Of a stretch of DNA of 64,000 nt, positions 3,358 to 23,868 are shown in pieces (position 1 is the stretch's first letter; every line of letters starts with the position of its first letter). Source of the DNA: Chloroflexia bacterium (GTDB lineage Bacteria; Chloroflexota; Chloroflexia; QHBQ01; JADMIH01); the NCBI GenBank assembly GCA_036388595.1, contig DASVRN010000100.1:11524-75523 (forward strand), written 5' to 3'. The translations under genes and the position numbers were made by a program. Below the pieces are notes generated by a model, which saw only the letters and a list, made by a program, of their open reading frames with translations, was not told the origin of the DNA and ran no database searches.

Positions 3358-3512
3358 CCCCTCTGTCATCCTGAGCGTAGCGAAGGATCTCAAATGTTAC
3401 TCTTGCTCGTGCCCTAGACCTTCAGCACACGGAGCGTTGTTGCTCATTGTTCAGCAGCATCCATATACCACCTTCTTGAGATCCTTCGCTACGCTCAGGA
3501 TGACAGGGGGGA
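3358..3512. repeat. MITE-like palindromic element, copy 1 (arms gtcatcctgagcgtagcgaaggatc)
   Basis: Left arm cccctctgtcatcctgagcgtagcgaaggatctc and right arm gagatccttcgctacgctcaggatgacagggggg are exact reverse complements around a ~90-bp core. Confidence 0.75.
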
Positions 3513-3553
3513 GTGTGGTCGCTGGCTCTTCAGCAGAACGGATTGCGGGGCGT

Positions 3554-4608
3554 TCACTTGTCCTGGGGCGTGAACTGGCGAATGGTGGCCTCAAAGTCGC
3601 GGGCGCTGATTTTCGTGGCAGACATTATGCGCTTGCGGGTGGGGAGGACGCGGGGCCACGTGAACAGGCCGACGAGGATGCCACGTAAGCGAGCGCGGGC
3701 GGCGGCACCACGGATGTTGCGTATCGCCTCTGTCGCGAATCGGAGCTGGGCCTTCACGATGCCCGGCATGTGGCGCAGGACGAAACCCAAGGGGAGGTCT
3801 TTGGCGAGGAGATAGATGAGGTTGCGGCCAACGTAGTAGGAGGCGAGGGTGCCGCCGCCGGTGGCGCTGAGACGATGCCGGGCGCGGGCGGTGGGTACGT
3901 ACACGGTGCGGTAGCCACGCAGGCGGGCGCGCAGGTTGAGGTCCACGTCCTCGGCGTACATCCATAGCTGGGGGTCGAGCACTCTGCCCTTTGGCTCGGT
4001 GCCGCCGGAGCGGGCGAGGTCGGCCAGCATAGTGCGCCTGTAGGCGGCGGCTGCTGCTGTGGGGCCGAACACCTCCTCTTCAGTGTCGTACTGGCCGGTG
4101 TCGGGCTGCCACACCCCCCTGCTGTTGGGCACGCCGTCGAAGCCGTAGTAGTCGCCCGCAGAGTGGAGGGTGTCGGGGCGGTCGTAGAGCACCAGCTTGC
4201 TAGCGGCTAGGGAGGCCCACGGGTTGCGGTCGAGGCCGCCGATTAGCTCAGCCAGCCAGGCGGGGTCGGGCGCCGCGTCGTTGTTCAACAGGACCAGTAT
4301 CTCACCACGTGCCTTTGCCAACCCCAGGTTGCAGGCCGCCACGAAGCCATGACCTTTCTTGCCGGGTATGCGCAGGGTGACTACGTCGGGCGTGCGCGAC
4401 AGCAACTTCTCGGTGCCGTCCGTGGAGGCGTCGTCCACCACAATTGTCTCGAAGTCGCGGTAAGTCTGCCTGCCGAGCGCTTCCAGGCATTCGGCCAGCA
4501 TATCAGCGCCGTTGTGCGTGGGGATGATTACGGAGACACGGTGAGGGTTAGAACGCCCTTCCAGACCTATAGCACCGGCGTTGTAGACCTGCCCTGACGC
4601 GCTCACAG
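3554..4608 (-). CDS. family 2 glycosyltransferase
   Basis: VSVIIPTHNGADMLAECLEALGRQTYRDFETIVVDDASTDGT is the GT2 N-terminal signature. No in-frame ATG precedes the domain, so a GTG start at 4608 is proposed. It overlaps the rmlD stop as GTGA. The long Arg/Pro-rich N-terminal extension of track ORF 3554..4828 is rejected. Confidence 0.7.
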
Positions 4609-5466
4609 GGGAGTTCCGACGTGCGGGGCCGTTGACAGGTAATCGGCCAGGGCTTCTTGCCAGGGGCGCAGTACAATGCCTGCGTCTGCCCCCACTACAT
4701 TCCTGAGGGTGGAGTAGTGGGCGGTGGGGGCGGGACGCTTGTAGTCGGCCAGGGCGGCGGGGGTCATGGGGATGTGCTCGCGGCCCGTGAGGCTCATTAT
4801 CTCGCTGGCGTAATCGAAGCGGGAGCACTCGCCCTCGTTGACTAGGTGGTACCAGCCATAGAGGCCGGTGCCGGAGAGTTGAAATAGAGCTGCGGCGAGG
4901 TCTTCAGCGTAAGTGGGGGTAGAGACTTCGTCGGCTACCACGCTGAGCGCCCCGTTCTTGTCAGCGGCGCGCACGATCTTGTGTATGAAGCTGTCGCCTT
5001 CCTTGCCGTAGAGCCAGGACACGCGGGCGATGTAGAAGCGGGTCATGAGCTGCTCTACGTAAATCTCACCGGCGCGCTTGCTGGTGGCATATGATCCTAC
5101 CGGGCAGGGCGGCTCAAGCTCCGTGAAGGGTGTGCTGCGCGACTGGTCGAAGAAGACCATGTTGGTGCTAACGTAAATAAGGGGTGCATCCACCTGATTG
5201 CAAGCAAGAGCCAGGTTGCGAGTACCCAGGCCGTTCACCTTGAAGGCCACGTCCGGCTCGCTCTCGGCCCCATCGACGTTGGTGTACGCGGCCGGGTGTA
5301 TCACCAGGTCCGGCTGGAACTCGCGCACGGCCGGGATGATGGATGCCGGGCCGGTGATGTCAAGTTCCGGGCGGTTGAGATGCAGGACCTCATGACCGGC
5401 GGCCTCGGCGTAGCGGACTAACGCCTGCCCTAGCGTGCCTCTCGTGCCGCTTATCGCTACCCTCAC
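4603..5466 (-). CDS. rmlD: dTDP-4-dehydrorhamnose reductase
   Basis: 287 aa, MRVAISGTRGTLGQAL...YVSTNMVFFD...YATSKRAGE. This is an NAD(P)-binding RmlD/RfbD-type fold with the YxxxK motif. Confidence 0.85.
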   Translation of the reverse strand: MRVAISGTRGTLGQALVRYAEAAGHEVLHLNRPELDITGPASIIPAVREFQPDLVIHPAAYTNVDGAESEPDVAFKVNGLGTRNLALACNQVDAPLIYVSTNMVFFDQSRSTPFTELEPPCPVGSYATSKRAGEIYVEQLMTRFYIARVSWLYGKEGDSFIHKIVRAADKNGALSVVADEVSTPTYAEDLAAALFQLSGTGLYGWYHLVNEGECSRFDYASEIMSLTGREHIPMTPAALADYKRPAPTAHYSTLRNVVGADAGIVLRPWQEALADYLSTAPHVGTPL

Positions 5467-5469
5467 GCC

Positions 5470-6390
5470 TTACGCCCCCCACCACAGGCCGATAGCCAGC
5501 GCCAGCACCGAGAGGGGCATCGCGGCCGACCAGACCATGCCTGCGGCCCCGCGCTCGCTCCTACCCAGCCACAAGCGTTCGGGTACAAGGCGCATGGCGA
5601 CGTAAGCAAACAGGGCCCCACCAAGCAGCACGAGCACGGCCCAGGGGAACGCACCGGGCACCGGCAGCACCAGCAGCGTCCACAATACCGACATAGCGAC
5701 CTGTTGGAACAGGCCGCCCGCGTAGAAGCCCGCGCTCTCCCCTCGCAAATCGGCTTCACGGCCGCGCCACCAGGGGAGGGAGATAAGGAGCACGCCTCCC
5801 GCCAGCAGCCGGACGAGTGTTTGCGCGGCGGTCTCAGGGGCCGCGCCCAACTCCGACAGCCGTAACGAGCGATTGCCCAGCACCTCTACCAGCGCGGCGA
5901 CTACCAGGAGTGCGGGCAGCAGGCCGGTTAGCAGCCTACCTAGCTCCTGAGCGCCCTTAAGCGCGACAAGCCCGCCCTGACGCAGCCTGGCAGCAGCAGA
6001 GGCCAGGGGCTGCACGCAGATGAGGGCAAGTACCGTGACGATGTCGGTGGTTAGAGCCTGCGAGCCACCCGTGAGGGGATTGCCGGGCAGGGGCATCAGC
6101 ACCAGGGCCAATAGCGGCCCAAGCACAGCCAGCAGGCCCAGGGCGTTCGTGGAGCCGGAGGTTGGGGTGGTCCCACCATCGCGCCCGGCCAGTTTGAGGA
6201 TGTCGTAGGCGGGTTGGAAGAAGCTATAGCGCGGTATGGTTAAACGTGTGCGCTGCCTGCGGAGGAACGGACGCACCACGGAGATTAGCCACTCGCCGGA
6301 GATGGCGAAGAGCAGCCCGAACAGCAGCCCTGGATAGAGCAGCAGGGCGAGCAGCCATTGTTGTAAAGTTGTGAACACCTCTGGCGGCAA
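5470..6390 (-). CDS. solitary complex-I subunit 1 (NuoH/HycD)-like polytopic membrane protein
   Basis: 306 aa, about 8 predicted TM helices. The segment RRQRTRLTIPRYSFFQPAYDILKLAGRD resembles the NuoH/HyfC loop motif (GP...QPxADxxKLxxKE). No other complex-I or hydrogenase subunits are nearby. Confidence 0.45.
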   Translation of the reverse strand: MPPEVFTTLQQWLLALLLYPGLLFGLLFAISGEWLISVVRPFLRRQRTRLTIPRYSFFQPAYDILKLAGRDGGTTPTSGSTNALGLLAVLGPLLALVLMPLPGNPLTGGSQALTTDIVTVLALICVQPLASAAARLRQGGLVALKGAQELGRLLTGLLPALLVVAALVEVLGNRSLRLSELGAAPETAAQTLVRLLAGGVLLISLPWWRGREADLRGESAGFYAGGLFQQVAMSVLWTLLVLPVPGAFPWAVLVLLGGALFAYVAMRLVPERLWLGRSERGAAGMVWSAAMPLSVLALAIGLWWGA

Positions 6391-6495
6391 ACGGCGTACC
6401 CCTCTCTACAAGCAGGGAGTCTATCACATGGGGGTGAGGGTGGCAAGGTGGGTCGGGAGCCACTCACAGTTGTAACAAAGTCGATTAGTGAAGCT

Positions 6496-6545
6496 AACGA
6501 TGGCTCTTGTCATTCTGAACGCAGTGAAGAATCAGGCGGGTAGGG
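6496..6545. repeat. solo left arm of MITE-like element (ttctgaacg variant)
   Basis: cttgtcattctgaacgcagtgaagaatcaggcgggtagggatgctgttgaac. An arm plus partial core sits immediately upstream of the full copy. Confidence 0.55.
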
Positions 6546-6574
6546 ATGCTGTTGAACCATTGGGACCAACTCCA

Positions 6575-6712
6575 CCTTTGTCATTCTGAACGCAGTGAAG
6601 AATCTCGTCCTACAGCACCCAAGTTGCCCCTTTCTTTCACCCACTATCTCCATCAGAAAGGTGAAGCATCCCGGTGGAGGACGAGATTCTTCGCTGCGCT
6701 CAGAATGACAGG
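6575..6712. repeat. MITE-like palindromic element, copy 2 (arm variant gtcattctgaacgcagtgaagaatc)
   Basis: cctttgtcattctgaacgcagtgaagaatctcgtcc ... ggacgagattcttcgctgcgctcagaatgacaggg. Both arms carry the same variant. Confidence 0.75.
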
Positions 6713-6756
6713 GTCCAATAGGGTGCTGCCCTCCGGCTTTGACACGGTTCCGGCCC

Positions 6757-7773
6757 TTAGTCGCCCTTCGTGGTGAGGTACTCTTGCAGGGCGTCGGCGT
6801 AGGCCTCCGCGATTGTTTGCCGGACCTCGTCCCGGTTGAGGTACTCGGCTTCCTGGGGCGAGGTTACGTAGAAGGCTTCTATCAGCACGCCGGGCATCTT
6901 GACGGCACGAGGGTGGCGGGGCATCTCTGCCGGGCCAAGCATGAAGAGATGTCCAGGTGGCTCGCCGGGAGAGTCTGACCAGAAATCGCTGCGCAGCTCC
7001 GATTTCTCTATTGTGTACCCCGCTTCCTCAAGCCTTGCCCACAGGTGATCGAGCACCAGACGACCCACTCGTTTGTTCTGCTGTGGGAAGAGGCAGTCGT
7101 CTGTGGCGCAATAGAGGGCCTGCAATCCCTTACGTTTCGCGGGATTAGAGGCGCTGTTGGCGTGGATGCTAAGAAAGACCTCCGCGCCGAACTCGTTCAT
7201 GATGTCGATGCGGTGCTGCAAGTCGTCGCTTTGGCCTTGCTCTACGCCGTCGCCGTTCGCGTCGTCAGGCCACGGAACGGTGAACTCATCACGCGTTTCC
7301 CTGGTCAGTCCGACCTCGGCACCGCGAGCTACCAGGATGTCGCGCAGACGCAGGGAGATGTCAAGGTTGAGTTCGTGCTCAGCCAGGATTAGCTTGCCGG
7401 TATCCTCGTTGACAAGCACCGCGCCCATATCCTCACGCGGGCCGTGTCCCGGGTCCAGGGCGATGCGCCTGCCCAGCAGGGGCTTCCCGGCGTCCGTCGT
7501 GGGGCTGGGAGGAGGGGTAAGGGTAGCTATAGAAGTAGTCGCAGGCGTGGATGGTGTGGCGGGAGAAGCCGGTGTTAGCGCAACAGGCGGAGTCTCAGCC
7601 TGCGCAAATTCTACAGTCGCTGTGACCGAGACGCCAGCCACCCCGGGAGTGAGCGATGGGGAATTGGCCTCAAATAAGCAGCCCGACAAGAGTGCGGCCA
7701 GCAGAAGCAGACAGATGTACGAAAGCAGGCGCGCGAGTGTGTGTTGAGTGGTCGTGTGGTTGGCGTTAGTCAT
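6757..7773 (-). CDS. N-acetylmuramoyl-L-alanine amidase (Amidase_3) lipoprotein
   Basis: Lipoprotein signal (LLLAALLSGC), a Pro/Thr-rich linker, then RIALDPGHGP...NLDISLRLRDIL...VFLSIHANS (MurNAc-LAA catalytic domain). Confidence 0.85.
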   Translation of the reverse strand: MTNANHTTTQHTLARLLSYICLLLLAALLSGCLFEANSPSLTPGVAGVSVTATVEFAQAETPPVALTPASPATPSTPATTSIATLTPPPSPTTDAGKPLLGRRIALDPGHGPREDMGAVLVNEDTGKLILAEHELNLDISLRLRDILVARGAEVGLTRETRDEFTVPWPDDANGDGVEQGQSDDLQHRIDIMNEFGAEVFLSIHANSASNPAKRKGLQALYCATDDCLFPQQNKRVGRLVLDHLWARLEEAGYTIEKSELRSDFWSDSPGEPPGHLFMLGPAEMPRHPRAVKMPGVLIEAFYVTSPQEAEYLNRDEVRQTIAEAYADALQEYLTTKGD

Positions 7774-8048
7774 GATTGAGGTCGTATTGCGGCGAGATGG
7801 ACGGCACCAACCAACACCCTTGATGATGGCTGAAACCTGCTGTGGAGTTGCGCTCCAGGCGCGCGACTCTCAAGGTGATAGCCGGGTCAAGGGGAACGGT
7901 GCCTTAGAGACTGAGGTCGGGGAATAGGAACGGGATAGTATAGCCGAGGTAGTATAACACAGCCTGCCGAATAGGGCCGTGCTGGTGTATCACCCTGCTG
8001 GACGTGTTTGGTTGAACACGGTTCAAGTAAGAAATTTGGAGCCAAACT

Positions 8049-8195
8049 CCCCTTTGTCATTCTGAACGCAGTGAAGAATCTCGTCCTCCATGCACGTGTT
8101 CCCCTTTTCCATTGGGGAAGTGCTCAGCAAAGAAAGGTGTAACTTGGGTGGTGAGGGACGAGATTCTTCACTGCGTTCAGAATGACAAAATGGGG
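8049..8195. repeat. MITE-like palindromic element, copy 3 (ttctgaacg variant)
   Basis: cccctttgtcattctgaacgcagtgaagaatctcgtcctcc ... ggacgagattcttcactgcgttcagaatgacaaaatgggg. Confidence 0.75.
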
Positions 8196-8249
8196 AGTGG
8201 TCCTTCCAATCGGACGCGCTGTGCGTTCGCTCTAAAGCATGGCTGGACG

Positions 8250-9182: not shown

Positions 9183-9247
9183 GATAATTCCTCCTAAAAT
9201 ATCGGTACGAACCTCTACAGCAGCAAGCGGGGTGCCAAGAGAGTAAT

Positions 9248-9412
9248 GAGGACTGAGGACTGAGGACTGAGGACTGAGTGTTTACTTGCGAGCTCCTCAG
9301 CCTCATCGCTAGAATTGCCTTGCATCTGATGGGAGTGTGGTGCATAATAGCGAAACGGCGTGTGAGGCTGTGAATGGCCGAGCTACTCAGTCCTCAGTCC
9401 TCAGTCCTCATC
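9248..9412. repeat. heptamer-arm hairpin element: (GAGGACT)n ... (CAGTCCT)n
   Basis: gaggactgaggactgaggactgag at 9248-9277 and its complement tcagtcctcagtcctcagtcctca at 9385-9412, about 105 bp apart. It sits in the divergent LLM/MTase intergenic region. Confidence 0.8.
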
Positions 9413-9434
9413 ACTGGTCAGAAAGGCCGGCTCG

Positions 9435-10505
9435 ATGCGCTACCTGGGTAACAAAGACAGCTTGCTGCCCTTCATCGACGAAGTGCTTGCTATGCACGGA
9501 GTGAAAAGCACGCGGGACAAACCGCTCTGCGTGTGCGACCCTTTCACCGGCACCACCGCCGTCGCCCGCCACCTCAAACGGCTCGAGTGGCAGACCGTCA
9601 CGGGCGACCTGATGACCTACTCCTACGCGCTGCAACACGCGTATATCGCCCTGAACGAAGCCCCGGTATTCGCCAACCTGGTGAACGCGGGCGTGCTAGA
9701 CGGCAGCGTGAACCTCCCGGTGCCCCTCCATCGCGTCATCGCGCACCTGAACAACCTGCGCGGCGTGGAGGGGTTCTTTTATTGGAATTACTCGCCCGAC
9801 GGGCCGGAGGGCAGGCGCTATTTCACGTCCGGGAACGCCCTGCGCATCGACGCTATCAGGAACACCATCAACTGGTGGTGGGAGCGGGGTTGGCTGATCG
9901 AATCGGAGCGATTCCTGCTGACGGCGGCACTGATCGAGGCGGTATCGAGGGTGGCGAACATCGCGGGCACCTATGCGGCGTTCCTCAAGCGGTGGGACTC
10001 GCGGGCGCGCAAGCCGCTGATGCTGGCGGTGCCCCAGGTGGTGCATAGCGCCTACGAGCACAGCATCAACCTGGCCGACGCCAACGAGTTGGTGCCCGAA
10101 ACGGAGTGCGACCTGCTGTACGTGGACCCCCCGTACAACACGCGGCAATACTGCACGAACTACCACCTGCTTGAGACGCTGGCGGTGGGCGATGAGCCTG
10201 AGACGCGGGGTGTCGCGGGGCTACGCACCGACGCCGAGGACAAGAGGTCGGCCTACTCCAAGACCGGGGCCGCAGAAGAAGCGTTATCGAAGCTGGTGAC
10301 AGGCTCCAAGGCGAAATGGGTGCTGGTCAGCTACAACAGCGAGGGCGTGATCCCGCACGACAAGATTGTGGACATCCTGTCTCAGCGCGGCACCGTGGAG
10401 ATTTACGCCTGCGAGTACCGCCGCTTCCGCTCCGACGCCGACGGTGAAAACCGCCAGTACAAGCCTAACACTACGGTGCAGGAGATGCTGTACTGGGTGG
10501 GGTGA
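9435..10505 (+). CDS. D12-class (Dam/FokI-like) N6-adenine DNA methyltransferase
   Basis: N-terminal MRYLGNKDSLLPFI (compare M.FokI MRFIGSKVNLL), motif I CDPFTGTTAV, and later LLYVDPPYNTRQY (motif IV). This is alpha-class order X-I-TRD-IV. Confidence 0.85.
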   Translation: MRYLGNKDSLLPFIDEVLAMHGVKSTRDKPLCVCDPFTGTTAVARHLKRLEWQTVTGDLMTYSYALQHAYIALNEAPVFANLVNAGVLDGSVNLPVPLHRVIAHLNNLRGVEGFFYWNYSPDGPEGRRYFTSGNALRIDAIRNTINWWWERGWLIESERFLLTAALIEAVSRVANIAGTYAAFLKRWDSRARKPLMLAVPQVVHSAYEHSINLADANELVPETECDLLYVDPPYNTRQYCTNYHLLETLAVGDEPETRGVAGLRTDAEDKRSAYSKTGAAEEALSKLVTGSKAKWVLVSYNSEGVIPHDKIVDILSQRGTVEIYACEYRRFRSDADGENRQYKPNTTVQEMLYWVG

Positions 10506-10512
10506 GGCGGAG

Positions 10513-10770
10513 TTCTTAATTCTTAATTCTTAATGTTCAATTCTTAATTGAGGTTTGGAGTAAATAGCAGATTTTGTGTGCGGGCACGATGCGTCGTGCC
10601 CATATGTGTCTGTATGGGTGGGAAACAGTAGCCATATGTGTGCATTCTACTTCGTACTGGGAGGCGGTCGTGCCGCAACGTAAGCTTGATACCTTGCATG
10701 GTGGCAACCGTGCCCCGCAACGAGAAACACAGCCAATTAAGAATTCAAAATTAAGAATTAAGAATTCTCC
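10513..10770. repeat. heptamer-arm hairpin element: (TTAATTC)n ... (GAATTAA)n
   Basis: ttcttaattcttaattcttaatgttcaattcttaattg at 10513-10550 and aattaagaattcaaaattaagaattaagaattc at 10736-10770. It lies between the two MTase genes. The right arm is wrongly included in track ORF 10574..11608. Confidence 0.75.
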
Positions 10771-10825
10771 CCCGCCGTCCGCCCATCCTCGTAACAGGTT
10801 GAACAACCTGACGGGGAGTGAGTGG

Positions 10826-11608
10826 GTGCATTTCCTGTCGTCCGTGGAGGCTACCGCGTTCCCAACTACCGGGCCGCAGTCGTACGGGCACAATTTGCGG
10901 CGAGTCCACCCATCACCCAAGCCGCCCCAGTTGATGCGGCGGCTGGTGGAGTTCTTTACGAAGGAGGGGGAATGGGTGCTTGACCCTTTTATGGGGGTTG
11001 GGGGCACACTGCTGGGGTGCTCGCTGGCGAACCGGGACGCGGTGGGGTTGGACCTATCTCCTGAGTACGTAGAGGTCTACAAGCAGGTGGCACGACAAGA
11101 GGGGTTGGGGACACAAACGGCGCTGATTACGGACGCGCGACGGATGTTGGAGCACCCGGAGGTAGCGGATCGCCTGTTCGACATGGTGCTGACCGACCCT
11201 CCCTATGGGGATATGATGCGGCGTCCGCAGAGCGGGGAGAAGAAGAAAAAGACGGGCCTGTCCTCGCCCACGCCGTTCACGGGCGACCCCGCCGACCTGG
11301 GCAACCTCACCTATGAGACATTCCTGGACGAGTTGGTAGGCATCATGGGCAAGTCGCTGGCGGTGCTCAAACCCTCGGGCTATCTAGTGCTGTTTGCCAA
11401 GGACTTCCAGCCCACCGAGCACCACCACAACCTGCTCCATGCCGACATCGTGGTGCGCCTCTCCAGGCTGCCGGAATTGGCCTACCGTGGCTGCAAAATC
11501 TGGTACGACCAGACCCCGCGCCTGTACCCATTCGGCTATCCCTACCGCTTCGTAGCCAACCAACTGCACCAGTACATCCTCATCTTCCAAAAAGCCAGCA
11601 ACCCTTAG
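10826..11608 (+). CDS. DNA methyltransferase (N6_N4_Mtase/PF01555-like, permuted motif order)
   Basis: VHPSPKPPQLMRRLVEFFTKEGEWVLDPFMGVGGTLLGCSLANRDAVGLDLSPEYVEV matches the HPTxKP + DPFxGSGTT catalytic-domain block, but it is followed (not preceded) by MVLTDPPYGDMM. A GTG start at 10826 with GGAGTGAG upstream is proposed; the repeat-encoded N-terminus of the track ORF is rejected. Confidence 0.65.
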   Translation: MHFLSSVEATAFPTTGPQSYGHNLRRVHPSPKPPQLMRRLVEFFTKEGEWVLDPFMGVGGTLLGCSLANRDAVGLDLSPEYVEVYKQVARQEGLGTQTALITDARRMLEHPEVADRLFDMVLTDPPYGDMMRRPQSGEKKKKTGLSSPTPFTGDPADLGNLTYETFLDELVGIMGKSLAVLKPSGYLVLFAKDFQPTEHHHNLLHADIVVRLSRLPELAYRGCKIWYDQTPRLYPFGYPYRFVANQLHQYILIFQKASNP

Positions 11609-11747
11609 GGGGCAATGAGTAAGAGACGAAACCGCAAAGGCGCAAAGAGCGCAAAGGACGCGCAAAGAGCATGAGGGTACGGGGCATACAAGAGCATGAT
11701 GCCCGTACCCTCGTCGGTGGCCCCGGTATTGGGCCCATAGAACCAAG

Positions 11748-11896
11748 CCCCTTCTGTCATCCTGAGCGCAGCGAAGGATCTCAAGAAGGTGAGTAGGGAT
11801 GCTGTTGAACGGCACGTACCAGGGTGCTGAACCTTCACCACAAGGGGTAAGGCAGCATCCTAGATCCTTCGCTACGCTCAGGATGACAGGGTGGGG
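11748..11896. repeat. MITE-like palindromic element, copy 4 (tcctgagcg variant)
   Basis: ccttctgtcatcctgagcgcagcgaaggatctc ... gatccttcgctacgctcaggatgacagggtgggg. The core shares gtagggatgctgttgaac with the solo arm at 6496. Confidence 0.75.
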
Positions 11897-12074
11897 CTTG
11901 GCCCTGCAAGAGCGGCATGGGGGCTACCCACGAGGGCAGGATACAGAGAGCGCCTACACACTCCAAACCATTATCTACTTAGTGTTACCTCTGAGCGTCC
12001 TTTGCGCTCTTTGCCCCTTTGCGGTTTCGTCTCTTGGGCAAGCCCACCGTCCGGTTTGTTGCAGGGGATACATT

Positions 12075-12083
12075 TGTTATACT
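12075..12083 (+). promoter_or_regulatory. extended -10 promoter (TGtTATACT) for the RHH/PIN operon
   Basis: ttTGtTATACT at 12075-12083. The AGGAGG RBS at 12098-12103 is followed by GTG 12111. Confidence 0.4.
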
Positions 12084-12110: not shown

Positions 12111-12377
12111 GTGAGTAATTATCTAATTGACGTGCATCTCTATATGGAAAAGGGGATGTACGAGCGGCTGGTGGACCGGGCGCAGGAGCTTGGGACACCT
12201 TTGAGCGCGGTGGTACGTGAGGCGGTGGTGGAGTACTTCGCCAACATCCCCGAGGTGTCCGACCGCAGCGGCGATATGCCCCAACCCGAAGACGCCATCT
12301 GGCAGATACCCACATTGAGCCAGTCATTCGGGGCGCTCAACGTGCCTGGAATGGGCGGCAACGGAGGTAATCGCTGA
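12111..12377 (+). CDS. ribbon-helix-helix (CopG/VapB-like) antitoxin-like protein
   Basis: 88 aa, GTG start. ...ERLVDRAQELGTPLSAVVREAVVEYF is the RHH pattern. Its stop overlaps the downstream ATG (TGATG). Confidence 0.6.
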   Translation: MSNYLIDVHLYMEKGMYERLVDRAQELGTPLSAVVREAVVEYFANIPEVSDRSGDMPQPEDAIWQIPTLSQSFGALNVPGMGGNGGNR

Positions 12378-12814
12378 TGCGACGCCAGCACAGGCTTATT
12401 TTTGTGAACACCAGCGGCTGGCTGGCCCTCTACAACCCCAACGACCCCAATCACGCCGCCGCCCGCGCCCTCTGGGACGACCTGCGCAACCAGCCGGTGC
12501 GCTTCGTGACCACCGACTACGTGCTGGACCAGGTGTTCACCGCCATGAAGGTGTTCGGCTCTCTGGATGCGGCCCAGGCGATTTACACGGTGGTCAACAA
12601 CACCTCGCTGTTGCGCTTCTTCATGACCGACAGCGTCATCTTCGAGCGGGCCTGGAAGATCTTCGTGGACGACGAGCACCCCCAGTTCACCTTCACCGAC
12701 TGCATCAACTACGCCGTTATCCAGTACCTCGGCGCCGACGAGGTGTTCACCTTCGACCCCAACTTCACCGCGCCAGGGTTGATTAGAATTCCGTCTTCAG
12801 GTGCCAGGGGGTAG
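12377..12814 (+). CDS. PIN-domain (VapC-like) protein
   Basis: 145 aa, RLIFVNTSGWLAL ... TFTDCINYAVIQ ... FTFDPNF. This is a PIN fold, but the first conserved acidic residue reads Asn (FVNTSG). Confidence 0.7.
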   Translation: MRRQHRLIFVNTSGWLALYNPNDPNHAAARALWDDLRNQPVRFVTTDYVLDQVFTAMKVFGSLDAAQAIYTVVNNTSLLRFFMTDSVIFERAWKIFVDDEHPQFTFTDCINYAVIQYLGADEVFTFDPNFTAPGLIRIPSSGARG

Positions 12815-13160
12815 GGCTGAAACGTGAAACGTGAAACGTGATGCGGCCTGTGTTATTTGGTGCGTGGATTCGAGGGTGCTTCTATAGCAGCAGAACCCCA
12901 CTCCCTTCTGTCATCCTGAGCGTAGCGAAGGATCAGGTGAGTAGGCGAGAGTCCTCAACGTTGTGGATGATGCAGGTACGAGCAGCAGGGCACCTCAACA
13001 TCAAGGGTCAAGAACGGGCTACTGATCCTTCGCTACGCTCAGGATGACAAAGGGGAGCAAGGGTTCCTTACATGAAACAGGGTCGCCTCGTGAGTTGAGG
13101 CGACCCTGTTTCTTTTTGCGTACTAAGCTTCCCCTACCGCATCACGTTTCACGTTTCAGC
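12812..13160. repeat. composite element: (GAAACGT)n / (CACGTTT)n hairpin arms enclosing MITE-like copy 5 (12897-13057)
   Basis: gaaacgtgaaacgtgaaacgtgatgcgg at 12812-12840 and catcacgtttcacgtttcag at 13135-13160. Inside lies cccttctgtcatcctgagcgtagcgaaggatcagg ... ctgatccttcgctacgctcaggatgacaaagggga. Confidence 0.75.
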
Positions 13161-14166
13161 CACCGATGTGCGACATCTCCACCTTCGACCGCCTCACCGT
13201 CTCTAGGGTGCGCAGGTCGGAGTAGCGGTCGGTGCGGCGACGCCAGACTTTGGCGACGAAGGCTGATAGCTCCTCGTCAGTTTTGCCGGAGCGGAGGAGG
13301 GCGCGCAGGTCGTGGCCGTAGTTGCCGAAGAGGCAGGTGAAGAGTTGGCCCTCCGGCGAAAGGCGGGCGCGGGTGCAGGTGCCGCAGAAGGGTTGGGTGA
13401 TGGAGGAGATGATACCGATTTCGCCGCCGCCATCGAGGTAGCGGTAGCGGGAGGCCACTTCGCCCGTGTAGTTCGGCTCGGCGGGTTCGATGGGCATCTC
13501 GGCGTTGATGACGCGCACGATCTCAGAGGCGGGCACCACGTCGTCCATGCGCCAGCCATTGGTGGTGCCCACGTCCATGTACTCGATGAAGCGCAGAATG
13601 TAGCCGGTGCCGTGGAAGTAGCGGGCCATGGGCAGGATGCTGCTTTCGTTCACGCCACGCTGGACCACCATGTTGATCTTGATCGGCCACAGCCCGGCTT
13701 CCCGGGCGGCCTCAAGCCCTTCCAGCACGCGCCCCACCGGGAAGTCCACATCGTTCATCGACCGGAACACCGCATCGTCTAGCGAGTCGAGGCTGACCGT
13801 GAGGCGCTTCAGCCCGGCCTCCTTCAACGCAACGGCCTTCTTCGTGAGGAGCGCGCCGTTGGTGGTAAGAGTGAGGTCCTTGAGGCCATCCAGCGAGGCG
13901 AGCATGGCGATCAGCTTCTCCAGGTCGCGCCGCACCAACGGCTCCCCGCCCGTGATGCGCAGCTTCTCGACGCCGAGGCCGATGAAGACATGGGCCAGGC
14001 GGGTAATCTCCTCGAAGGTCAGCAGGTCGGCGCTGGGCAGGAACTGGAAGTCGCGCCCGAACACCTCCTTGGGCATGCAGTAGGTGCAGCGGAAATTGCA
14101 CCTATCGGTCACCGAGATGCGCAGGTCGTGGAGGGGCCTATTCAGTTGGTCAGTGGGCTTTTGCAT
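13156..14166 (-). CDS. moaA: GTP 3',8-cyclase MoaA (radical SAM)
   Basis: [18 protein letters not shown]...GGEPLVRRD. Start placed at the internal Met (ATG 14166, MQKPTDQL). The track N-terminus translates the GGATTTT repeat. Confidence 0.9.
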
Positions 14167-14167
14167 T

Positions 14168-14247
14168 TTGGATTTTGGATTTTGGATTTTAGATTGGTTT
14201 GGAGTGCTTCTTAATCCAAAATCCAAAACCTAAAATCCAAAATCGAA
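14168..14247. repeat. heptamer-arm hairpin: (GGATTTT)n ... (AAAATCC)n inside the moa operon
   Basis: ggattttggattttggattttagattgg at 14170-14197 and ccaaaatccaaaacctaaaatccaaaatc at 14214-14245. Confidence 0.8.
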
Positions 14248-15039: not shown

Positions 15040-15293
15040 GTGATTGCATACAGGGCTGTGACAAAGTCGATGGGTTGCAACCTATAGGACCAGGCACCAC
15101 CCTTGTCATTTCGAACGCAGTGAGAAATCTCGTCCTCCAGCACCCAAAGCCAACCTTTATCCAACTATCCAGCATTATAACAAGATAGTCTCACAAGAAA
15201 CGGCCACAGCCCGGTGAAGGACGAGACTTCTCACTGCGTTCGAAATGACAGGGCGGTGCCTGGTCTCATAATTCGACTTTGTCACAGCCCTGG
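15040..15293. repeat. MITE-like palindromic element, copy 6 (tttcgaacg variant, extended ~60-bp terminal inverted repeats)
   Basis: Inner arms cccttgtcatttcgaacgcagtgagaaatctcgtcc / ggacgagacttctcactgcgttcgaaatgacaggg. Outer arms cagggctgtgacaaagtcga...gaccaggcacc and ggtgcctggtc...tcgactttgtcacagccctg. Confidence 0.75.
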
Positions 15294-15328
15294 ATTGCAT
15301 GGTTAGTCTGAACTGGAGGCATAGAGTG

Positions 15329-16066: not shown

Positions 16067-16101
16067 CTTTAGAAGGATGTCATGGTCGCTTGCCCATCCC
16101 T

Positions 16102-17016: not shown

Positions 17017-17021
17017 AGGGA

Positions 17022-17160
17022 ATTGATAATTACGAATTACGAATTACAGATTGCAGGCAGTATCCCATTGATGAGAGTGGAGCGCAAGAACAAAGGGAGC
17101 AGGTGTTGACCTACTCCCTTAGCATCCCCGTAATTCGTAATTCGTAATTCGTAATTCGTA
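17022..17160. repeat. heptamer-arm hairpin: (GAATTAC)n ... (GTAATTC)n
   Basis: gataattacgaattacgaattacag at 17024-17050 and cgtaattcgtaattcgtaattcgtaattac at 17128-17165. It lies between two co-oriented minus-strand genes. Confidence 0.8.
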
Positions 17161-17168
17161 ATTACCCT

Positions 17169-19457: not shown

Positions 19458-19579
19458 TAAATTTCCTCCTATTACCTTTCTATGGTATGAATGGTTAGTT
19501 GTTTATCATTATGTCTACTATCAAGGCTGCCATACTCAGGAGTGCCAGGTGAGCGTAGGATTCCTACACCCCCGACCTC

Positions 19580-19733
19580 CCCCGTGTCATCCTGAGCGCA
19601 GCGAAGGATCTCAGATGCTGCCTTTATCCCTGTGCTGAACCCTCCGCGTCATGTTCGCTACCATTCAGCCGTATCCCTGTTCACCTTCTTGAGATCCTTC
19701 GCTACGCTCAGGATGACAGGGGCACTCTTGGTC
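19580..19733. repeat. MITE-like palindromic element, copy 7 (tcctgagcg variant)
   Basis: cccccgtgtcatcctgagcgcagcgaaggatctcagatgctgcctttatccctgtgctgaaccctccgcg...gagatccttcgctacgctcaggatgacaggggc. The core is nearly identical to copy 8. Confidence 0.75.
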
Positions 19734-19751
19734 GCTTCGCACCAACACCTG

Positions 19752-19795
19752 TCACATCGCGCTACTCAGTCCTCAGTCCTCAGTCCTCAGTCCTC
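19752..19795. repeat. unpaired (CAGTCCT)n tandem array
   Basis: tactcagtcctcagtcctcagtcctcagtcctcagcac. Same unit as the hairpin arm at 9385, with no complementary arm nearby. Confidence 0.7.
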
Positions 19796-19810
19796 AGCAC
19801 TCATTACTCG

Positions 19811-21499
19811 TCACTTCACCAGAAGCATCTTGCCTTCGCCCCACACGGCCGAGTAGGTGCCGGGGAGGGACTTTAGAAGCTCGAAGCCGAAGCTGCCGGT
19901 CCAGTGCCACAGGTTGACGTTGCCGGGGGCCTGCTCCTGGGCGGGGTTGGCGCTGTCGAACACGGCCAGCGCGGGCTTCGCGTTCGGGGCGAGGGGCACG
20001 ACCGCGAGGTTGAGTATGGGTGAAGGGCGAGGCGAGCCGTGCCACAGGGGCGTGAGCGTGCCGTCGCGCCAGGTGTTAATGTAAATGTGCGGCAGGAAGT
20101 CGCCTCCCTCCATGTCTACCTTCATACCGCCGTCGTCCGGGCGTTCCCAGGTCAGGCGGTGTTTCCAGAGCGAGTAGACCAGGTCGGGCTTGCCGTCGGC
20201 GTTGGCATCGCCCACCGTGTAGCCGGTGACGCGCCAGGTCGGTTCGCTCTGCCAGACCGTCTTCCAGGGGCCTTTGCCCCCGCCCGTCTGCACAGACAGC
20301 ACGCCGCCGAGCAGTTGAGCGCGGGTGGTAACCCCCAGCCCCAACTCTTCGATTGAGGCGCGTTCCGGTGAGGTTGCCGCACGCCGGTACCCTATGCCGA
20401 GACCTGCCTGGGGCTGGTTGGCGTCCCAGAGGGCTTTCCATTGCAGTTCGGCGGGCGTGCTCAGGGCCGCGCGTTTGAGTGTCGGTTGGCCGGAGGCATC
20501 GTCTGCCACGCGCATTTTGTAGCTGCCCGCCGTTATCTCCATTGGGATGAGCCGGGCGCTCTTCACACCCTGCTTGTCCACACGCACCGACAGAGCGAGA
20601 CCCTGCCGCGTTTCCATACGGGCCATCTGGTCGAACAAGGCATTGCCGAGCGAGTAGGCCACGACAGTTGAACGTGCGGGGCCGCCCTCAAGTTCCACCT
20701 TCAGACCCTGCGCTACGTGTGGGTGCGCGCCCACCACCAGGTCAGCACCGGAGCGGGAAGCGAGCTTGCCTAGCTCCACCACCCAGCTATCGGGCTGCGT
20801 TTTGTACTCGTTGCCCCAGTGCATGAACACGACTACTATGTCCGCCTTCGTCCTGGCGGAAGCGATTTGCGCCGCGAACAGGTCCTTGTCGGCCTTGCTC
20901 GTGGGGTTGATATAGCCTATACCGGGTCGAAGCGCGCCGTTGCGCCACATGCCGTCAGTGATGATGTTAAGTAGGGTCGTGTAGCCGAGGAAGGCTACCT
21001 TCACCCCGCGCACCTCGCGTATGACGGGCAACTGCCTGCCCTGCGCGTCAGCAAGCCCGAACGAGGTCATACCAGAGGCTCGGAGCGCGCTCACCGTCGA
21101 TTGCAGGCCCGCCGCGCCGGAGTCGAGAGCGTGGTTGTTGGCGAGCGATAGCAGGTCGAACCCGGCGCGCGAAAGGGCGGGAGCGGCGCGGTCGTCGCCG
21201 GTGAGGTTCAGCTCGTTGGGTGCGGGAGGCGGTATCCTGATAGAGCCACGTCGCACCAACGGCCCCTCCAGGTTGCCCACGGCAAGGTCGGCGGACTGGA
21301 GCAGCGGGCGCACGGTCTCGAATGGGGTGTCGTAACCCCTGGCGGCCACCGTGCTACCCACGTACCGGCCAAGCATAATGTCGCCCACGAACGCCAGGCT
21401 CACCTCGTCAATGGAGGGCGCGGCGGTGCCACCCGCCCGGGTGAAAGCCCCAGCGAGCGCGGCAATTACCAGCGATATGGCGATGGCGACTCTTATCAA
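19811..21499 (-). CDS. CapA/PGA_cap metallophosphoesterase-family protein with C-terminal FG-GAP-like extension
   Basis: LAFVGDIMLGR...ADIVVVFMHWGNEY...VVGAHPHVAQG is the CapA pattern. A ~200-aa tail contains GDANADGKPDLV. Confidence 0.8.
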   Translation of the reverse strand: MIRVAIAISLVIAALAGAFTRAGGTAAPSIDEVSLAFVGDIMLGRYVGSTVAARGYDTPFETVRPLLQSADLAVGNLEGPLVRRGSIRIPPPAPNELNLTGDDRAAPALSRAGFDLLSLANNHALDSGAAGLQSTVSALRASGMTSFGLADAQGRQLPVIREVRGVKVAFLGYTTLLNIITDGMWRNGALRPGIGYINPTSKADKDLFAAQIASARTKADIVVVFMHWGNEYKTQPDSWVVELGKLASRSGADLVVGAHPHVAQGLKVELEGGPARSTVVAYSLGNALFDQMARMETRQGLALSVRVDKQGVKSARLIPMEITAGSYKMRVADDASGQPTLKRAALSTPAELQWKALWDANQPQAGLGIGYRRAATSPERASIEELGLGVTTRAQLLGGVLSVQTGGGKGPWKTVWQSEPTWRVTGYTVGDANADGKPDLVYSLWKHRLTWERPDDGGMKVDMEGGDFLPHIYINTWRDGTLTPLWHGSPRPSPILNLAVVPLAPNAKPALAVFDSANPAQEQAPGNVNLWHWTGSFGFELLKSLPGTYSAVWGEGKMLLVK

Positions 21500-21667
21500 C
21501 GTAGTTAGCCCAGGGGTGCGAAGCGAAATCTGCTGTGACGTCCACGTGTATGTATATGTAATTGTAAGTACATGCTGGGAGTATTCTTCCCGACGCTGCT
21601 ATTGTACCCTGCCTGGGAATGTGGATAAAGGGCAGGTCGGCTTACGGAGGCTACGACAAAGGGAGTA

Positions 21668-21735
21668 AGGATGAGGAGGATGGAGGATGGACGATGGACG
21701 ATGGACGATGGACGATGGACGATGGACGATAGGAT
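21668..21735. repeat. unpaired (GGAGGAT)(GGACGAT)n tandem array
   Basis: ggaggatggaggatggacgatggacgatggacgatggacgatggacgatggacgatagg. The same GGACGAT unit recurs at 36098 and 57963. Confidence 0.7.
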
Positions 21736-21792
21736 TGTGTATTTCGCTTGGCCCTGGTATCCAACATTGCATCTCCCTGGCGAATACCAGGA

Positions 21793-21958
21793 CCAACGCT
21801 CCCCTTTGTCATCCTGAGCGTAGCGAAGGATCTCAGATGCTGCCTTTATCCCTGTGCTGAACCCTCCGCGCCATGTTCGCTACCATTCAACAGCCTCCCT
21901 ACTCACCTTCTTGAGATTCTTCGCTACGCTCAGGATGACAAAGGGGAGCGTTGGTACT
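21793..21958. repeat. MITE-like palindromic element, copy 8 (tcctgagcg variant, longer TIRs)
   Basis: accaacgctcccctttgtcatcctgagcgtagcgaaggatctc...gattcttcgctacgctcaggatgacaaaggggagcgttggt. The core is over 90% identical to copy 7. Confidence 0.75.
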
Positions 21959-22046
21959 CATAGCCGAGTCTGCATCTGCCCCGCCGGGGCCGTTCGCCGG
22001 ATTGACCAAACATAGGTATTGTATTACCATTGGGCCGCTAGCTTAC

Positions 22047-23678
22047 ATGAGTAAAAGAGATACATCTATGAGTCCAACAGTGATGCGGCGGGGCCGGTGG
22101 GTCCTGGCTATCATTGTTGGCCTGTACTTGCTGCTGTTCGGGTACACGTCGCTGACGTACACTCGCAGCTTTACGAGCGATAGCATGAACTATGTGGATG
22201 TCGCTAGCAACCTGCTCGCGGGACGGGGGCTTGTCCAGTCTACCCTGGGCTTCAACACGCCGGATTTCTCACCTGACGCGCCAATTCCCGTACCCTTCAC
22301 CGCCCAGCCACCACTGTACCCGGCCAATATCGCGCTACTGAGTGTCACAGGCATAAGCGGGGCCGATGCCGCGTTACTCGTGGCCCTGCTGGCTTACGGG
22401 TTGGTGCTGCTGTTGAGCTATCTGCTTGCGCGCAACCTGTATGACGAGACGGCAGCCCTGATGGTTGTGGCGGCGCTGCTATTCTACGAACCCCTGGCGT
22501 TTGTGGCCGACCACGCCTGGAGCGAGACACTGGCTGTGTCCTTCGTGCTCTTATCTCTCTGGCTGTTGGTCCTGGTCATGCGAGGCAGATGGGGCGTGTT
22601 CGCTGGGTCGCTTCTGAGCGGTATCGCCGGGGGGCTTGCGTTCGCCACAAGGTATTCATTCGCCATGATAGTTGTGGTGGTAGTGGCCGGTACTGTCGTG
22701 ACAGCCCTGATGAGCCGGGACCGCAAGCTCAGGACGGAGAGGCTGGTAACCGGCACCCTGTACGCCGTCGGCTTTCTGGTGGTGGCCGGGCCGGTGTTGC
22801 TGCACAATTGGCTGACTACACATGACCTGTTGCCTTCTTACAACCCCGCCACGACCGGGTTGGTGGAGAATATCGGCAGGGCGCTTGAGACGCTGTTCGG
22901 GGGCTACCTACCGGTAGGAGAAGTCCCGCACCAGGCGGTGGCCCTTGCACTCTGTTTGATTGCACTGTTCATGCTGGTGCTCTTCCGGCACCGGGCGGCA
23001 AGCGGCGAGTGGTTGGCGAGCACCTTCTTGCAACAGGGGCGTTATTTGCTGGCAGGATGGACGATAGCATATACCGCCCTGGTGGTATACCAGCGGTCGG
23101 TCCACCATTTTGACGAGCTAGATGCCCGGCTGTTGGTACCTGCGGGCATCACCCTGGTGATTGCGATTGTGGCTTTCGCCGTTCGCGCGCTGACCGTAGG
23201 TCCGAGAGTGGCTGTGGTGCTAGCAATGATTGTGGCGATTGCCGCGCTAGGCCAGCAGTTCGCGAGAGTGTGGGTACATGCAAGCAGGGAGGCCGGGCCG
23301 GAAAGAACTTTGCCCGCGCACCTGGAGTGGTTGGCACGAAACACCACTGACGAAGACTTGATCATCTCCAAAGACGCGGTGGATGTACCCTTCTGGCTGG
23401 GGCGCTCAGGTGCGGTCTCGTACTCGCCCTATCCTTACACGGTACACCTGCAACACAACAAAGTGCAGGAGCTAGCGGGCCACAAGTGTGCCGAGTACCG
23501 GCATATATTCCTCGTGGCTAGCGTCACCAACCCCGATGGGCAGCGCAACAGGGCCGATTACGGGCCATACATTACAGATCTGGCGTCTGCGCGTTACGAG
23601 CAATACCCCGACCTTGTACTGAAGGCACAATTGAAGGGTACAGCCATTTACGAGGTTGAGTGCAAATCGCCTGGCTGA
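22047..23678 (+). CDS. GT-C fold membrane glycosyltransferase (ArnT/PMT-like)
   Basis: More than 10 TM helices and a periplasmic loop with a QPPLYP motif. Start is ambiguous (ATG 22047, 22068 or 22083). The track N-terminus from 21951 lies inside MITE copy 8 and is rejected. Confidence 0.55.
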   Translation: MSKRDTSMSPTVMRRGRWVLAIIVGLYLLLFGYTSLTYTRSFTSDSMNYVDVASNLLAGRGLVQSTLGFNTPDFSPDAPIPVPFTAQPPLYPANIALLSVTGISGADAALLVALLAYGLVLLLSYLLARNLYDETAALMVVAALLFYEPLAFVADHAWSETLAVSFVLLSLWLLVLVMRGRWGVFAGSLLSGIAGGLAFATRYSFAMIVVVVVAGTVVTALMSRDRKLRTERLVTGTLYAVGFLVVAGPVLLHNWLTTHDLLPSYNPATTGLVENIGRALETLFGGYLPVGEVPHQAVALALCLIALFMLVLFRHRAASGEWLASTFLQQGRYLLAGWTIAYTALVVYQRSVHHFDELDARLLVPAGITLVIAIVAFAVRALTVGPRVAVVLAMIVAIAALGQQFARVWVHASREAGPERTLPAHLEWLARNTTDEDLIISKDAVDVPFWLGRSGAVSYSPYPYTVHLQHNKVQELAGHKCAEYRHIFLVASVTNPDGQRNRADYGPYITDLASARYEQYPDLVLKAQLKGTAIYEVECKSPG

Positions 23679-23720
23679 AACCCATCTCACAAACAAGAAT
23701 GAGGAGATGAGCACCCAAAG

Positions 23721-23868
23721 CCCCTACCTTGTCATTTCGAACGAAGTGAGAAATCTCGTCCCTCACCACCCAAATAGCACCTTTCCTTCAGCAACAGAAA
23801 CCCATAAGGAAAAGGTGACATCTCGGTGTAGGACGAGATTTCTCACTTCGTTCGAAATGACAAGGGGA
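23721..23868. repeat. MITE-like palindromic element, copy 9 (tttcgaacg variant)
   Basis: ccccctaccttgtcatttcgaacgaagtgagaaatctcgtcc ... ggacgagatttctcacttcgttcgaaatgacaagggg. Confidence 0.75.

Follow-up and report, generated by a model that had tools for sequence, protein, structure and literature searches.

The DNA analysed here, a 64,000-nucleotide window from an uncultured Chloroflexia bacterium (contig DASVRN010000100.1 of assembly GCA_036388595.1), contains nine copies of a palindromic element, each composed of two inverted 25-nt arms that face one another across a central core. Which fold of this element has selection preserved, and by what process did its copies come to occupy so many intergenic regions? 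Selection has preserved the small hairpin within the individual arm, and the long hairpin that a whole copy can form arises as a by-product when two like arms pair. Rather than a terminal repeat specific to this lineage, the arm is a motif found across bacteria and described before, and its sequence and neighbours make it very probable that the arms are recognition hairpins of the type bound by Ssn, a small GIY-YIG nuclease acting on single-stranded DNA (ssDNA).

A search of the window with the three arm sequences quoted in the initial annotation, at up to three mismatches, yields 19 arms, where dinucleotide-preserving shuffles predict none. These resolve into nine convergent arm-core-arm pairs and one solo arm, all lying between 3.3 and 23.9 kb, and the remaining 40 kb of the window (24-64 kb) carries no arm. 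Nine positions drawn at random from 64 kb would all fall within a 20.5-kb span with P ~6e-4. The copy number, the solo arm and the three arm variants therefore stand as first described. Every copy sits between open reading frames (ORFs) bearing Pfam domains, in tandem, convergent and divergent intergenic regions. An element length of about 150 bp had been given, which fits the palindromes themselves (about 135-170 bp), but a conserved outer module of about 18 nt (GGACCAAnnCTCCCCTTT), present at most element ends, extends most units to approximately 160-170 bp (e.g., 21789-21958). The original view of a repeated intergenic palindromic family under selection for a folded structure, akin to repetitive extragenic palindromes (REPs) or MITEs (miniature inverted-repeat transposable elements), is supported, although the structure concerned is smaller than was supposed.

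Specifically, the 25-nt arm (GTCATCCTGAGCGTAGCGAAGGATC) is a hairpin in itself. An unpaired GTC tag is followed by a 5-bp stem in which positions A4-T8 pair with A20-T24, a tandem G.A internal loop (G9A10 with G18A19), a 2-bp stem in which R11C12 pairs with G16Y17, and the loop G13-N14-A15, with C25 left unpaired. All 19 window arms read tGTC-AT...AT-C, and among 50 distinct arms the first stem pairs, A-T and T-A, are invariant and the tail is C(TC). The arm variants ATCCT/AGGAT, ATTCT/AGAAT and ATTTC/GAAAT, together with GC..GC versus AC..GT, are Watson-Crick compensations inside one arm. In a set of 140 locus-unique arms taken across phyla, 96-99% have Watson-Crick partners at the four variable stem pairs, compared with 50-89% expected if the positions were independent, and the central base of the GNA loop is free (A 57, C 45, T 20 and G 18). 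The 50 distinct arms are 94.9% paired, with double-sided changes in four of the seven stem pairs and 62 double-sided cells versus 25 +/- 7 in shuffles (0/500 as extreme). When the partner column is slid as a control, the paired share falls to 12-54%.

The commonest arm apex, GCGAAGC, is held within a sheared-type tandem G.A. DNA mini-hairpins of the form d(GCGNAGC) with GNA loops were reportedly studied by Hirao, Yoshizawa and colleagues in the 1990s as biophysical model oligonucleotides. The arm apex resembles these in its C-GNA-G arrangement with a free N, and differs from them in that the arm is a genomic repeat family.

It had been proposed that both arms of every copy carry the same variant, such that each copy is a perfect inverted repeat. 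Over 25 nt, this is true for only four of the nine copies (1, 3, 5 and 9). The arms of copies 4, 6, 7 and 8 differ at one position, and those of copy 2 at two positions (11 and 17) that pair with each other. Compensatory variation, the second half of that proposal, is real, but it operates within each arm and not between arms. In ten doublets with unlike arms, compensation occurs within the arm at 22 of the 23 differing stem positions, whereas arm-to-arm pairing is broken. Because stem changes are compensated within the arm wherever the two arms differ, we conclude that selection acts on each small hairpin. Hairpin-templated propagation, which had been offered to explain the matching arms, is therefore not needed: unlike arms lose inter-arm pairing and keep intra-arm pairing. 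Whole doublets nevertheless form strong ssDNA folds (-33 to -47 kcal/mol, z -8 to -13), the by-product noted above.

The cores that separate the arms are 80-95 nt long, have a G+C content of 0.48-0.55 compared with 0.60 for the genome, and fall into two subfamilies that go together with arm variant: A (copies 1, 4, 5, 7 and 8) and B (copies 2, 3, 6 and 9). The cores of copies 7 and 8 are 91% identical, as the initial annotation had estimated (over 90%), and it is on this one likeness that its suggestion of recent activity depends. Long terminal inverted repeats of 28-52 nt characterize the window elements; outside the window, the inverted repeat usually stops 0-4 nt past GTCAT. Whole elements, including core and outer module, are 76-81% identical to copies in the metagenome-assembled genome (MAG) 'Chloroflexota bacterium PEA bin11'. 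Copy-specific compensation in the outer flanks was considered and rejected, as these flanks are mostly the shared conserved module with indels (ungapped identity 0.51 within copies versus 0.46 between copies).

Between outer arm ends, the paired copies span 3365-3504, 6580-6709, 8056-8186, 11756-11887, 12910-13048, 15105-15249, 19586-19717, 21808-21939 and 23731-23861. Copy 1 (subfamily A, 3355..3514) has identical arms at 3365-3389 (+) and 3480-3504 (-) around a 90-nt core, a 39-nt inverted repeat of 97% identity and an ssDNA fold of -40.5 kcal/mol (z -9.4); it lies 40 nt after a gene ending at 3554. The solo arm (6509-6533, within 6501..6557 on the plus strand) continues into about 24 nt of A-type core (AGGCGGGTAGGGATGCTGTTGAAC) and is a truncated A copy abutting copy 2, with which it forms the only mini-array in the window (6509-6709). 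Copy 2 (subfamily B, 6562..6719) carries arms at 6580-6604 (+) and 6685-6709 (-), where the A..T versus G..C difference at positions 11 and 17 is compensated within the arm. A nested insertion of copy 2 into the truncated A copy at 6509 was rejected because the right-flank alignment is too weak (score ~34).

Copy 3 (subfamily B, 8042..8200) has identical arms at 8056-8080 (+) and 8162-8186 (-) and a 45-nt inverted repeat. In copy 4 (subfamily A), whose hairpin spans 11742-11902, the arms at 11756-11780 (+) and 11863-11887 (-) differ solely at the free loop base, and the core is reversed relative to copies 7 and 8. Copy 5 (12901..13057; identical arms at 12910-12934 (+) and 13024-13048 (-)) has a divergent A-like core in common with positions 5336-5510 of locus L031 from another genome. 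Extended terminal repeats had been reported for copies 6 and 8, and both are present. Copy 6 (subfamily B, 15088..15266), with one mismatch between arms 15105-15129 (+) and 15225-15249 (-), is nested in a further inverted repeat (15052-15071 / 15274-15293), and copy 8 (subfamily A, 21789..21958) has a 47-nt inverted repeat. The arms of copy 8, at 21808-21832 (+) and 21915-21939 (-), show one uncompensated stem mismatch, and this copy is 79% identical over 168 nt to L031 906-1073. Copy 7 (subfamily A, 19581..19722; arms 19586-19610 (+) and 19693-19717 (-), differing at the loop base) is in direct orientation to copy 8 on the other side of a PGA_cap gene. Copy 9 (subfamily B, 23716..23876) has identical arms at 23731-23755 (+) and 23837-23861 (-) and a 52-nt inverted repeat of 87% identity. 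An assembly made independently from the same population breaks at window position 21713 (the end of ENA contig k141_650096), 75 nt before copy 8.

How far does the arm extend beyond this genome? A scan of 185,579 species genomes with GTCATYYYGARCGNAGYGARRRATC recovers it in at least 119 loci, with Acidobacteriota, Chloroflexota, Nitrospirota, Bacteroidota, Patescibacteria and Bacillota among the hosts; the matches listed also include Pseudomonadota, Planctomycetota, Gemmatimonadota, Omnitrophota and one Nanoarchaeota bin. In these other genomes, an inverted partner lies at a distance of 10-110 nt for about half of the arms, and the 25-nt arm remains constant across phyla while its surroundings change. 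As control loci we used 795 kb from organisms found by a metagenome scan to encode a DUF3160 protein about 50% identical to that of the window. These contain no arm, and the expansion is therefore lineage-specific. At several arm loci (L082 at about 380-420, L039, L096, L010 and L084), two to three tandem partial copies of about 20 nt, matching the first half of the arm, precede a full arm (e.g., TGTCATCCTGAGCACTTAC x3); these could be slippage products or extra binding sites. Within the window, a 29-nt tandem repeat (unit GATGGACGATGGGTCCTGAGCCTGCGAAG; 2.5 copies, 100% identical) lies just downstream of gltX at 36109-36180, and its unit holds an arm-like core, TCCTGAGCCTGCGAAGGAT, that resembles a degenerate arm beside an Ssn gene at L019 3799-3822.

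A literature search by arm sequence string returned nothing relevant. The closest published counterpart is structural, namely NTS (CGTCATTCCCGCGMAVGCGGGAATCYRG), a Neisseria repeat that contains the classical dRS3 (Chenal 2025, PMC11893778). SsnA, a GIY-YIG protein of 94 aa with a single domain, binds NTS in ssDNA form but not dsDNA, RNA or the reverse strand, and nicks a few nucleotides upstream of the motif. Binding depends critically on the C immediately after the palindrome, and cleavage on the three bases before it. Ssn-related motifs (SRMs) occur near ssnA homologues in 71% of cases and on both sides in 42% (PMC11893778). Binding of such hairpins in ssDNA and nicking on their 5′ side are established for Ssn of Neisseria and Wolbachia, and they lower the integration of motif-bearing transforming DNA.

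The window arm shares with NTS its tag, the ends of its AT-initiated palindrome and its trailing C, which are the positions critical for cleavage and binding. The similarity extends to the unpaired 5′ tag (C/T)GTC, a palindrome of the form AT(T/C)C...G(A/G)AT followed by C, a length of 20 versus 21 nt, hundreds of clustered intergenic copies, and a single-domain GIY-YIG gene of about 95 aa flanked on both sides by the motif (PMC11893778). The two differ in that NTS forms a continuous 8-bp stem with a GMAV tetraloop, whereas the window arm has a tandem G.A/A.G internal loop and a C-GNA-G triloop. Moreover, the window arms occur in fixed doublets with 80-95 nt cores and an 18-nt outer module, in a Chloroflexota MAG, with no ssn in the window. 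Essentially Neisseria-consensus NTS (CGTCATTCCCGCGAAGGCGGGAATCCAG) nevertheless lies beside G.A-type arms in eight arm loci and in none of the control loci: L010 4009; L020 2756/2853; L041 333/2598/5353; L071 5240; L094 3429/7641; L098 397/459; L099 1508; and L101 7251. Their hosts are Dehalococcoidia, Chloroflexota, Nitrospirales, Gammaproteobacteria and Terriglobia MAGs and one Nanoarchaeota bin, and the conservation of the NTS consensus at the nucleotide level across phyla is striking.

The genes beside the arms provide the second link. In L005 (Saccharibacteria) and L040 (Gracilibacteria), a GIY-YIG ORF lies exactly between a (+) arm and a (-) arm, and in L019 (Cyclobacteriaceae) the ORF is likewise between arms with the gene on the other strand. 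These ORFs encode 92-102 aa with Pfam PF01541. A search with a profile built from 120 Ssn-like proteins finds three strong Ssn-like ORFs in 827 kb of arm-selected loci, all between arms, and none in the 795 kb of control loci. Five further homologue loci (P0014, P0029, P0046, P0065 and P0118, from Dehalococcoidia, Thermodesulfovibrio, Parcubacteria, Chloroflexota and one more lineage) all have GTCAY-5 bp-GA...GA-5 bp-ATC arms in the vicinity of the gene, mostly within 100 nt; for P0118, the first arm is 69 nt and the first strict arm 316 nt downstream. Thus, G.A-type arms are close by at 8/8 Ssn-like gene loci examined, mostly convergent as arm(+)-gene-arm(-) and often in alternating arm arrays. 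Some database Ssn proteins end in ...DSSLRSE*, where the stop codon is inside the right arm. A search for a cognate transposase such as IS200/IS605 TnpA had been suggested. A hairpin-recognising enzyme is indeed linked to the arms, but it is the GIY-YIG protein Ssn, and no TnpA or TnpB domain is found in the window ORFs.

Two further observations concern the Ssn genes themselves. A diversity-generating retroelement in L217-L219 (contigs of Parcubacteria and related hosts; gene 1501-1800) holds an Ssn-like GIY-YIG gene and its arms in the space from the bAvd gene to the reverse transcriptase, and the same layout in several assemblies suggests insertion of an arm-ssn unit into the retroelement spacer. 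In addition, several Ssn-gene contigs end right after the gene (L203-L206).

Where an Ssn gene is present between arms, it fills the slot taken by the short core in the window. We hypothesize that each window element is a convergent doublet of a 25-nt ssDNA hairpin signal (an unpaired TGTC tag, an AT-starting palindrome and a trailing unpaired C), its arms parted by a lineage-specific core of 80-95 nt and, in the window lineage, extended outward by the ~18-nt module. Such elements would be the gene-less form of arm-ssn-arm units and would depend on an Ssn encoded elsewhere. They are probably non-autonomous pairs of hairpins recognised by Ssn and can be compared with Neisseria NIME units or with REPINs; an ssDNA-based process that depends on Ssn and creates no target duplication may have dispersed them into intergenic regions. 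Where Ssn is expressed, by analogy with Neisseria, the flanking DNA could be cleaved whenever it becomes single-stranded, as in transforming DNA, replication or repair. That Ssn itself mobilises the doublets is a weaker proposition, which we regard as plausible but somewhat doubtful.

Local arrays, in turn, would grow and shrink via recombination between arms of the same orientation. Among near-identical genomes, exactly one array unit separates two Thermodesulfovibrio MAGs (99 nt), and one unit of 104 nt separates three other assemblies, with the end points of these indels inside arms of like orientation; the loci compared are L215 versus L216 (1780-2170) and L212/L214 versus L213 (about 1080-1190). 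Synteny between two Chloroflexota contigs of 99.4% identity breaks off within an array of arms (L201 versus L202, after 4662 / 3437). From the one-unit indels and the synteny break it follows that arm arrays behave as recombination or rearrangement hot spots.

Several observations weigh against an assignment of the arms to Ssn and of the doublets to an Ssn-driven process. Nearest-neighbour DNA energies give the arm hairpin on its own little stability (-0.9 to -2.7 kcal/mol, with no significant z), although such energies do not model the stability of GNA/G.A mini-hairpins, and in a fully single-stranded element the long hairpin between the two arms would be a competing fold. The Ssn profile search finds no Ssn or GIY-YIG gene in the 64-kb window. 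The arm-adjacent GIY-YIG proteins match only Pfam PF01541, with no specific NCBIfam hit and a weak match to the UPF0213 structure 1ZG2, UPF0213/YhbQ being a distant match only. The published SRM pattern, HGTCWYN(0-2)YYVSBRHN(0-5)WNVSBRGN(0-2)RNCYNB, recognises NTS itself and matches 0/19 window arms, because the G.A internal loop violates it. With regard to mobility, the demonstrated role of Neisseria Ssn is the restriction of transforming ssDNA, and no Ssn is known to transpose DNA. A nick a few nucleotides upstream of the tag would not set the unit ends, which reach about 18 nt past it. Finally, two independent assemblies of the region are 100% identical and reveal no insertion polymorphism, and the nearest relatives found stand at about 50% protein identity. 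Since the SRM pattern fails and the neighbouring proteins are assigned at the level of Pfam PF01541 and not of CDD cd10448 (the Ssn clade), we file the arm as a variant of the SRM/CGTC-REP kind and not as a member by the published operational definition.

The CGTC-tagged REP superfamily is the broader family to which this description refers (Di Nocera 2013, PMC3733652). Its repeats have a terminal CGTC, or TGTC in many cases, AT at the first two stem positions and a short unpaired tail. They occur mostly as inverted dimers, both homo- and heterodimers, around 20-100 bp spacers that are often conserved and have complementary ends; dRS3 is CGTC-1. The superfamily was reported from Proteobacteria, Chlorobi, Bacteroidetes, Spirochaetes and Thermotogae but not from Chloroflexi, and no dedicated enzyme was found for it (PMC3733652). 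The window arm agrees in its TGTC tag, AT first stem pairs and tail, and in forming nine inverted dimers with 80-95 nt spacers. The four published families have uninterrupted 8-9 bp stems with 4-5 nt loops, and bulged variants may have escaped the authors (PMC3733652), whereas the window arm consists of 5 bp, a 2x2 G.A internal loop and 2 bp closed by a 3-nt loop. The window arm type would be a fifth CGTC family.

A comparable unit architecture is found in the NIMEs, dRS3-RS-dRS3 units in which inverted hairpin repeats of about 20 nt surround RS families of 50-150 bp (Bentley 2007, PMC1797815). The window elements also resemble NIMEs in a core G+C below that of the genome and, for the arm type in other genomes, in the variable number of units per array. 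They differ in being mostly single per intergenic region, where NIMEs typically stand in long arrays, in having only two core families and in an inverted repeat that reaches well outside the hairpin.

The NIME precedent leads to the explanation that best survives beside our own. The doublets could be domesticated, immobile sites that control recombination or transformation, as proposed for Neisseria NTS/NIME, at which a chromosomal Ssn modulates ssDNA exchange of the 3-24 kb genes and which spread by recombination only. The copies cluster significantly within a single 20-kb stretch that has many envelope-related genes (GT2, amidase_3, PGA_cap, PMT_2 and EamA), which fits this idea, as do the change of array units via recombination between arms and the P0118 Ssn, which seems fixed in an operon-like position. 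However, nine dispersed units sharing one ~165-bp consensus, termini included, are hard to obtain from array recombination alone, there is no evidence of natural competence in this organism, and no Ssn was found in the window. We consider this account possible though not the likelier one: it is a serious alternative for function, yet it leaves the dispersal of a 165-bp consensus unexplained.

Might the covariation instead reflect RNA structure, with the elements acting as transcribed intergenic terminators, mRNA stabilisers or processing sites? In RNA, too, tandem G.A and GNA loops are stable motifs, the copies are strictly intergenic with several just past stop codons (e.g., copy 1), and the whole-doublet fold is very strong. 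Di Nocera et al. also argue for an RNA function of many REPs. However, no Rfam family matches (gathering and permissive thresholds gave only generic miRNA-hairpin noise). In addition, no U-run follows the hairpin on either strand (flanks ATGACAGGGG / CCCCTTTGTCAT), copies 6 and 8 lie between divergently transcribed genes, the motif is oriented, tagged and flanks a DNA nuclease gene, and the RNA form is not bound by SsnA (PMC11893778). An RNA-level element is thus unlikely as the primary explanation, although the doublets may have a secondary effect on transcripts. A hammerhead-like or k-turn RNA (CUGA...GA) was also considered and rejected because of a core that does not match and a linked enzyme that acts on DNA. 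No tRNA was found in the window.

Slightly less probable still is a conventional MITE, an internally deleted DDE insertion sequence whose terminal inverted repeats of about 45 bp are bound as dsDNA and whose arm variants are simply MITE subfamilies. The long terminal inverted repeats, the dispersal of single copies over nine intergenic regions and the two core subfamilies that track arm variant would all be expected of such an element, and its termini would read TG...CA, though solely on condition that the end is taken to include the tag. On the other side, target-site duplications are absent at 9/9 copies and no transposase, nor an insertion sequence with the same ends, was found in the window. 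Furthermore, the 25-nt arm is kept across phyla while its surroundings change, covariation inside the arm is not required by dsDNA recognition, non-complementary arms are tolerated in doublets elsewhere, and the gene between arms, wherever present, is the ~95-aa GIY-YIG nuclease.

The least probable alternative, a REPIN in which a REP doublet is mobilised on ssDNA hairpins by a RAYT (an IS200/IS605-like Y1 transposase), has a precedent in outline in the non-autonomous doublet of tagged, inverted ssDNA hairpins with a conserved spacer, in the single-copy gene flanked by the same hairpin, in the intergenic location and in the absence of target-site duplications (Bertels and Rainey 2011, PMC3337134), but REPINs carry a GTAG tag and depend on an HUH Y1 transposase whereas the window arm type pairs TGTC with GIY-YIG, CGTC/TGTC repeats flank no RAYT or other transposase gene (PMC3733652), no Y1_Tnp domain occurs in the window, and the flanked gene is GIY-YIG in 8/8 loci examined. 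PATE-like derivatives of IS200/IS605 differ further, having unlike left and right hairpins on the same strand, while the ends of the window elements are inverted copies of one hairpin.

The window holds other repeats and genes apart from the doublets. Many other intergenic regions contain hairpins built from three to eight tandem heptamers followed by an inverted heptamer array (9247-9410, 10513-10766, 14159-14244, 17028-17163, 26753-26836, 39305-39393, 40873-40971 and 42008-42091), and single heptamer arrays occur at 19765-19803, 21675-21730, 37508-37566 and 37928-38009. The heptamer differs by site (TGAGGAC, TTCTTAA, TTTTGGA, AATTACG, CGGATTT, GGATTTC, GAAACGT and AGTGGTT), and some of the same arrays are also found in the Chloroflexota PEA bin11 loci. 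Together with the Ssn-type doublets, these hairpins place a large palindrome in most intergenic regions of the first 24 kb. Two adjacent DNA methyltransferase genes at 9435-11608 and 12377-12814 (D12-class N6-adenine; N6_N4_Mtase) have heptamer palindromes between and around them, and a PIN-domain ORF lies between copies 4 and 5.

An unrelated palindromic element at 37747-37907 has 46-nt arms that are 89% complementary (AGGAGACGCCCGTCGATTAAAATCGAGGGCTACACC...), and its right-arm region partially matches L066 4933-4994. A stretch of about 218 nt over the 3′ part of a multicopper-oxidase ORF (58098-58313) is 71-73% identical to tandem copies at L119 315-530 and 605-826 (Chloroflexia MAG SMAG_U3210) and is either a shared repeat or a conserved domain-coding segment. 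The gene at 45820-48504 (-) encodes an 894-aa TIR - NB-ARC/STAND NTPase - TPR protein with a 126-nt tandem period at 46016-46548; it lies in the lowest-G+C stretch of the window (0.53 versus 0.60) and looks like a candidate anti-phage or NLR-like defence gene.

The doublets tie an abundant repeat of an uncultured Chloroflexota genome to the recently characterised Ssn/NTS enzyme-motif system. What is new is the G.A/GNA hairpin variant, widespread yet undetected by the published pattern; its occurrence in Chloroflexota in long-ended, MITE-like doublets; the clear covariation inside the arm; and the placement of the gene in the core slot across phyla. Since a widespread variant escapes the published pattern, Ssn-motif censuses probably undercount. 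If each hairpin variant has its own Ssn specificity, then these loci offer ready-made substrate-enzyme pairs for the ssDNA tools envisaged by the Ssn authors. On a practical level, such repeats fragment short-read assemblies and create spurious ORFs and peptide extensions (...DSSLRSE, MSLRAKRSNL...).

The presence of an Ssn gene in the 'core' slot of a doublet in several phyla also sharpens the hypothesis that a GIY-YIG nickase of ssDNA drives elements of IS and MITE type. In its broadest form, which we put forward tentatively and hold to be rather unlikely as a whole, arm-ssn-arm units and gene-less doublets would make up a pan-bacterial superfamily of ssDNA mobile elements with, as their 'transposase', a ~95-aa GIY-YIG nickase, which belongs to an enzyme class not known to mobilise prokaryotic insertion sequences. 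The G.A/GNA arm would then be a major specificity class missed by the published census, and the window would represent a burst of the miniature form.

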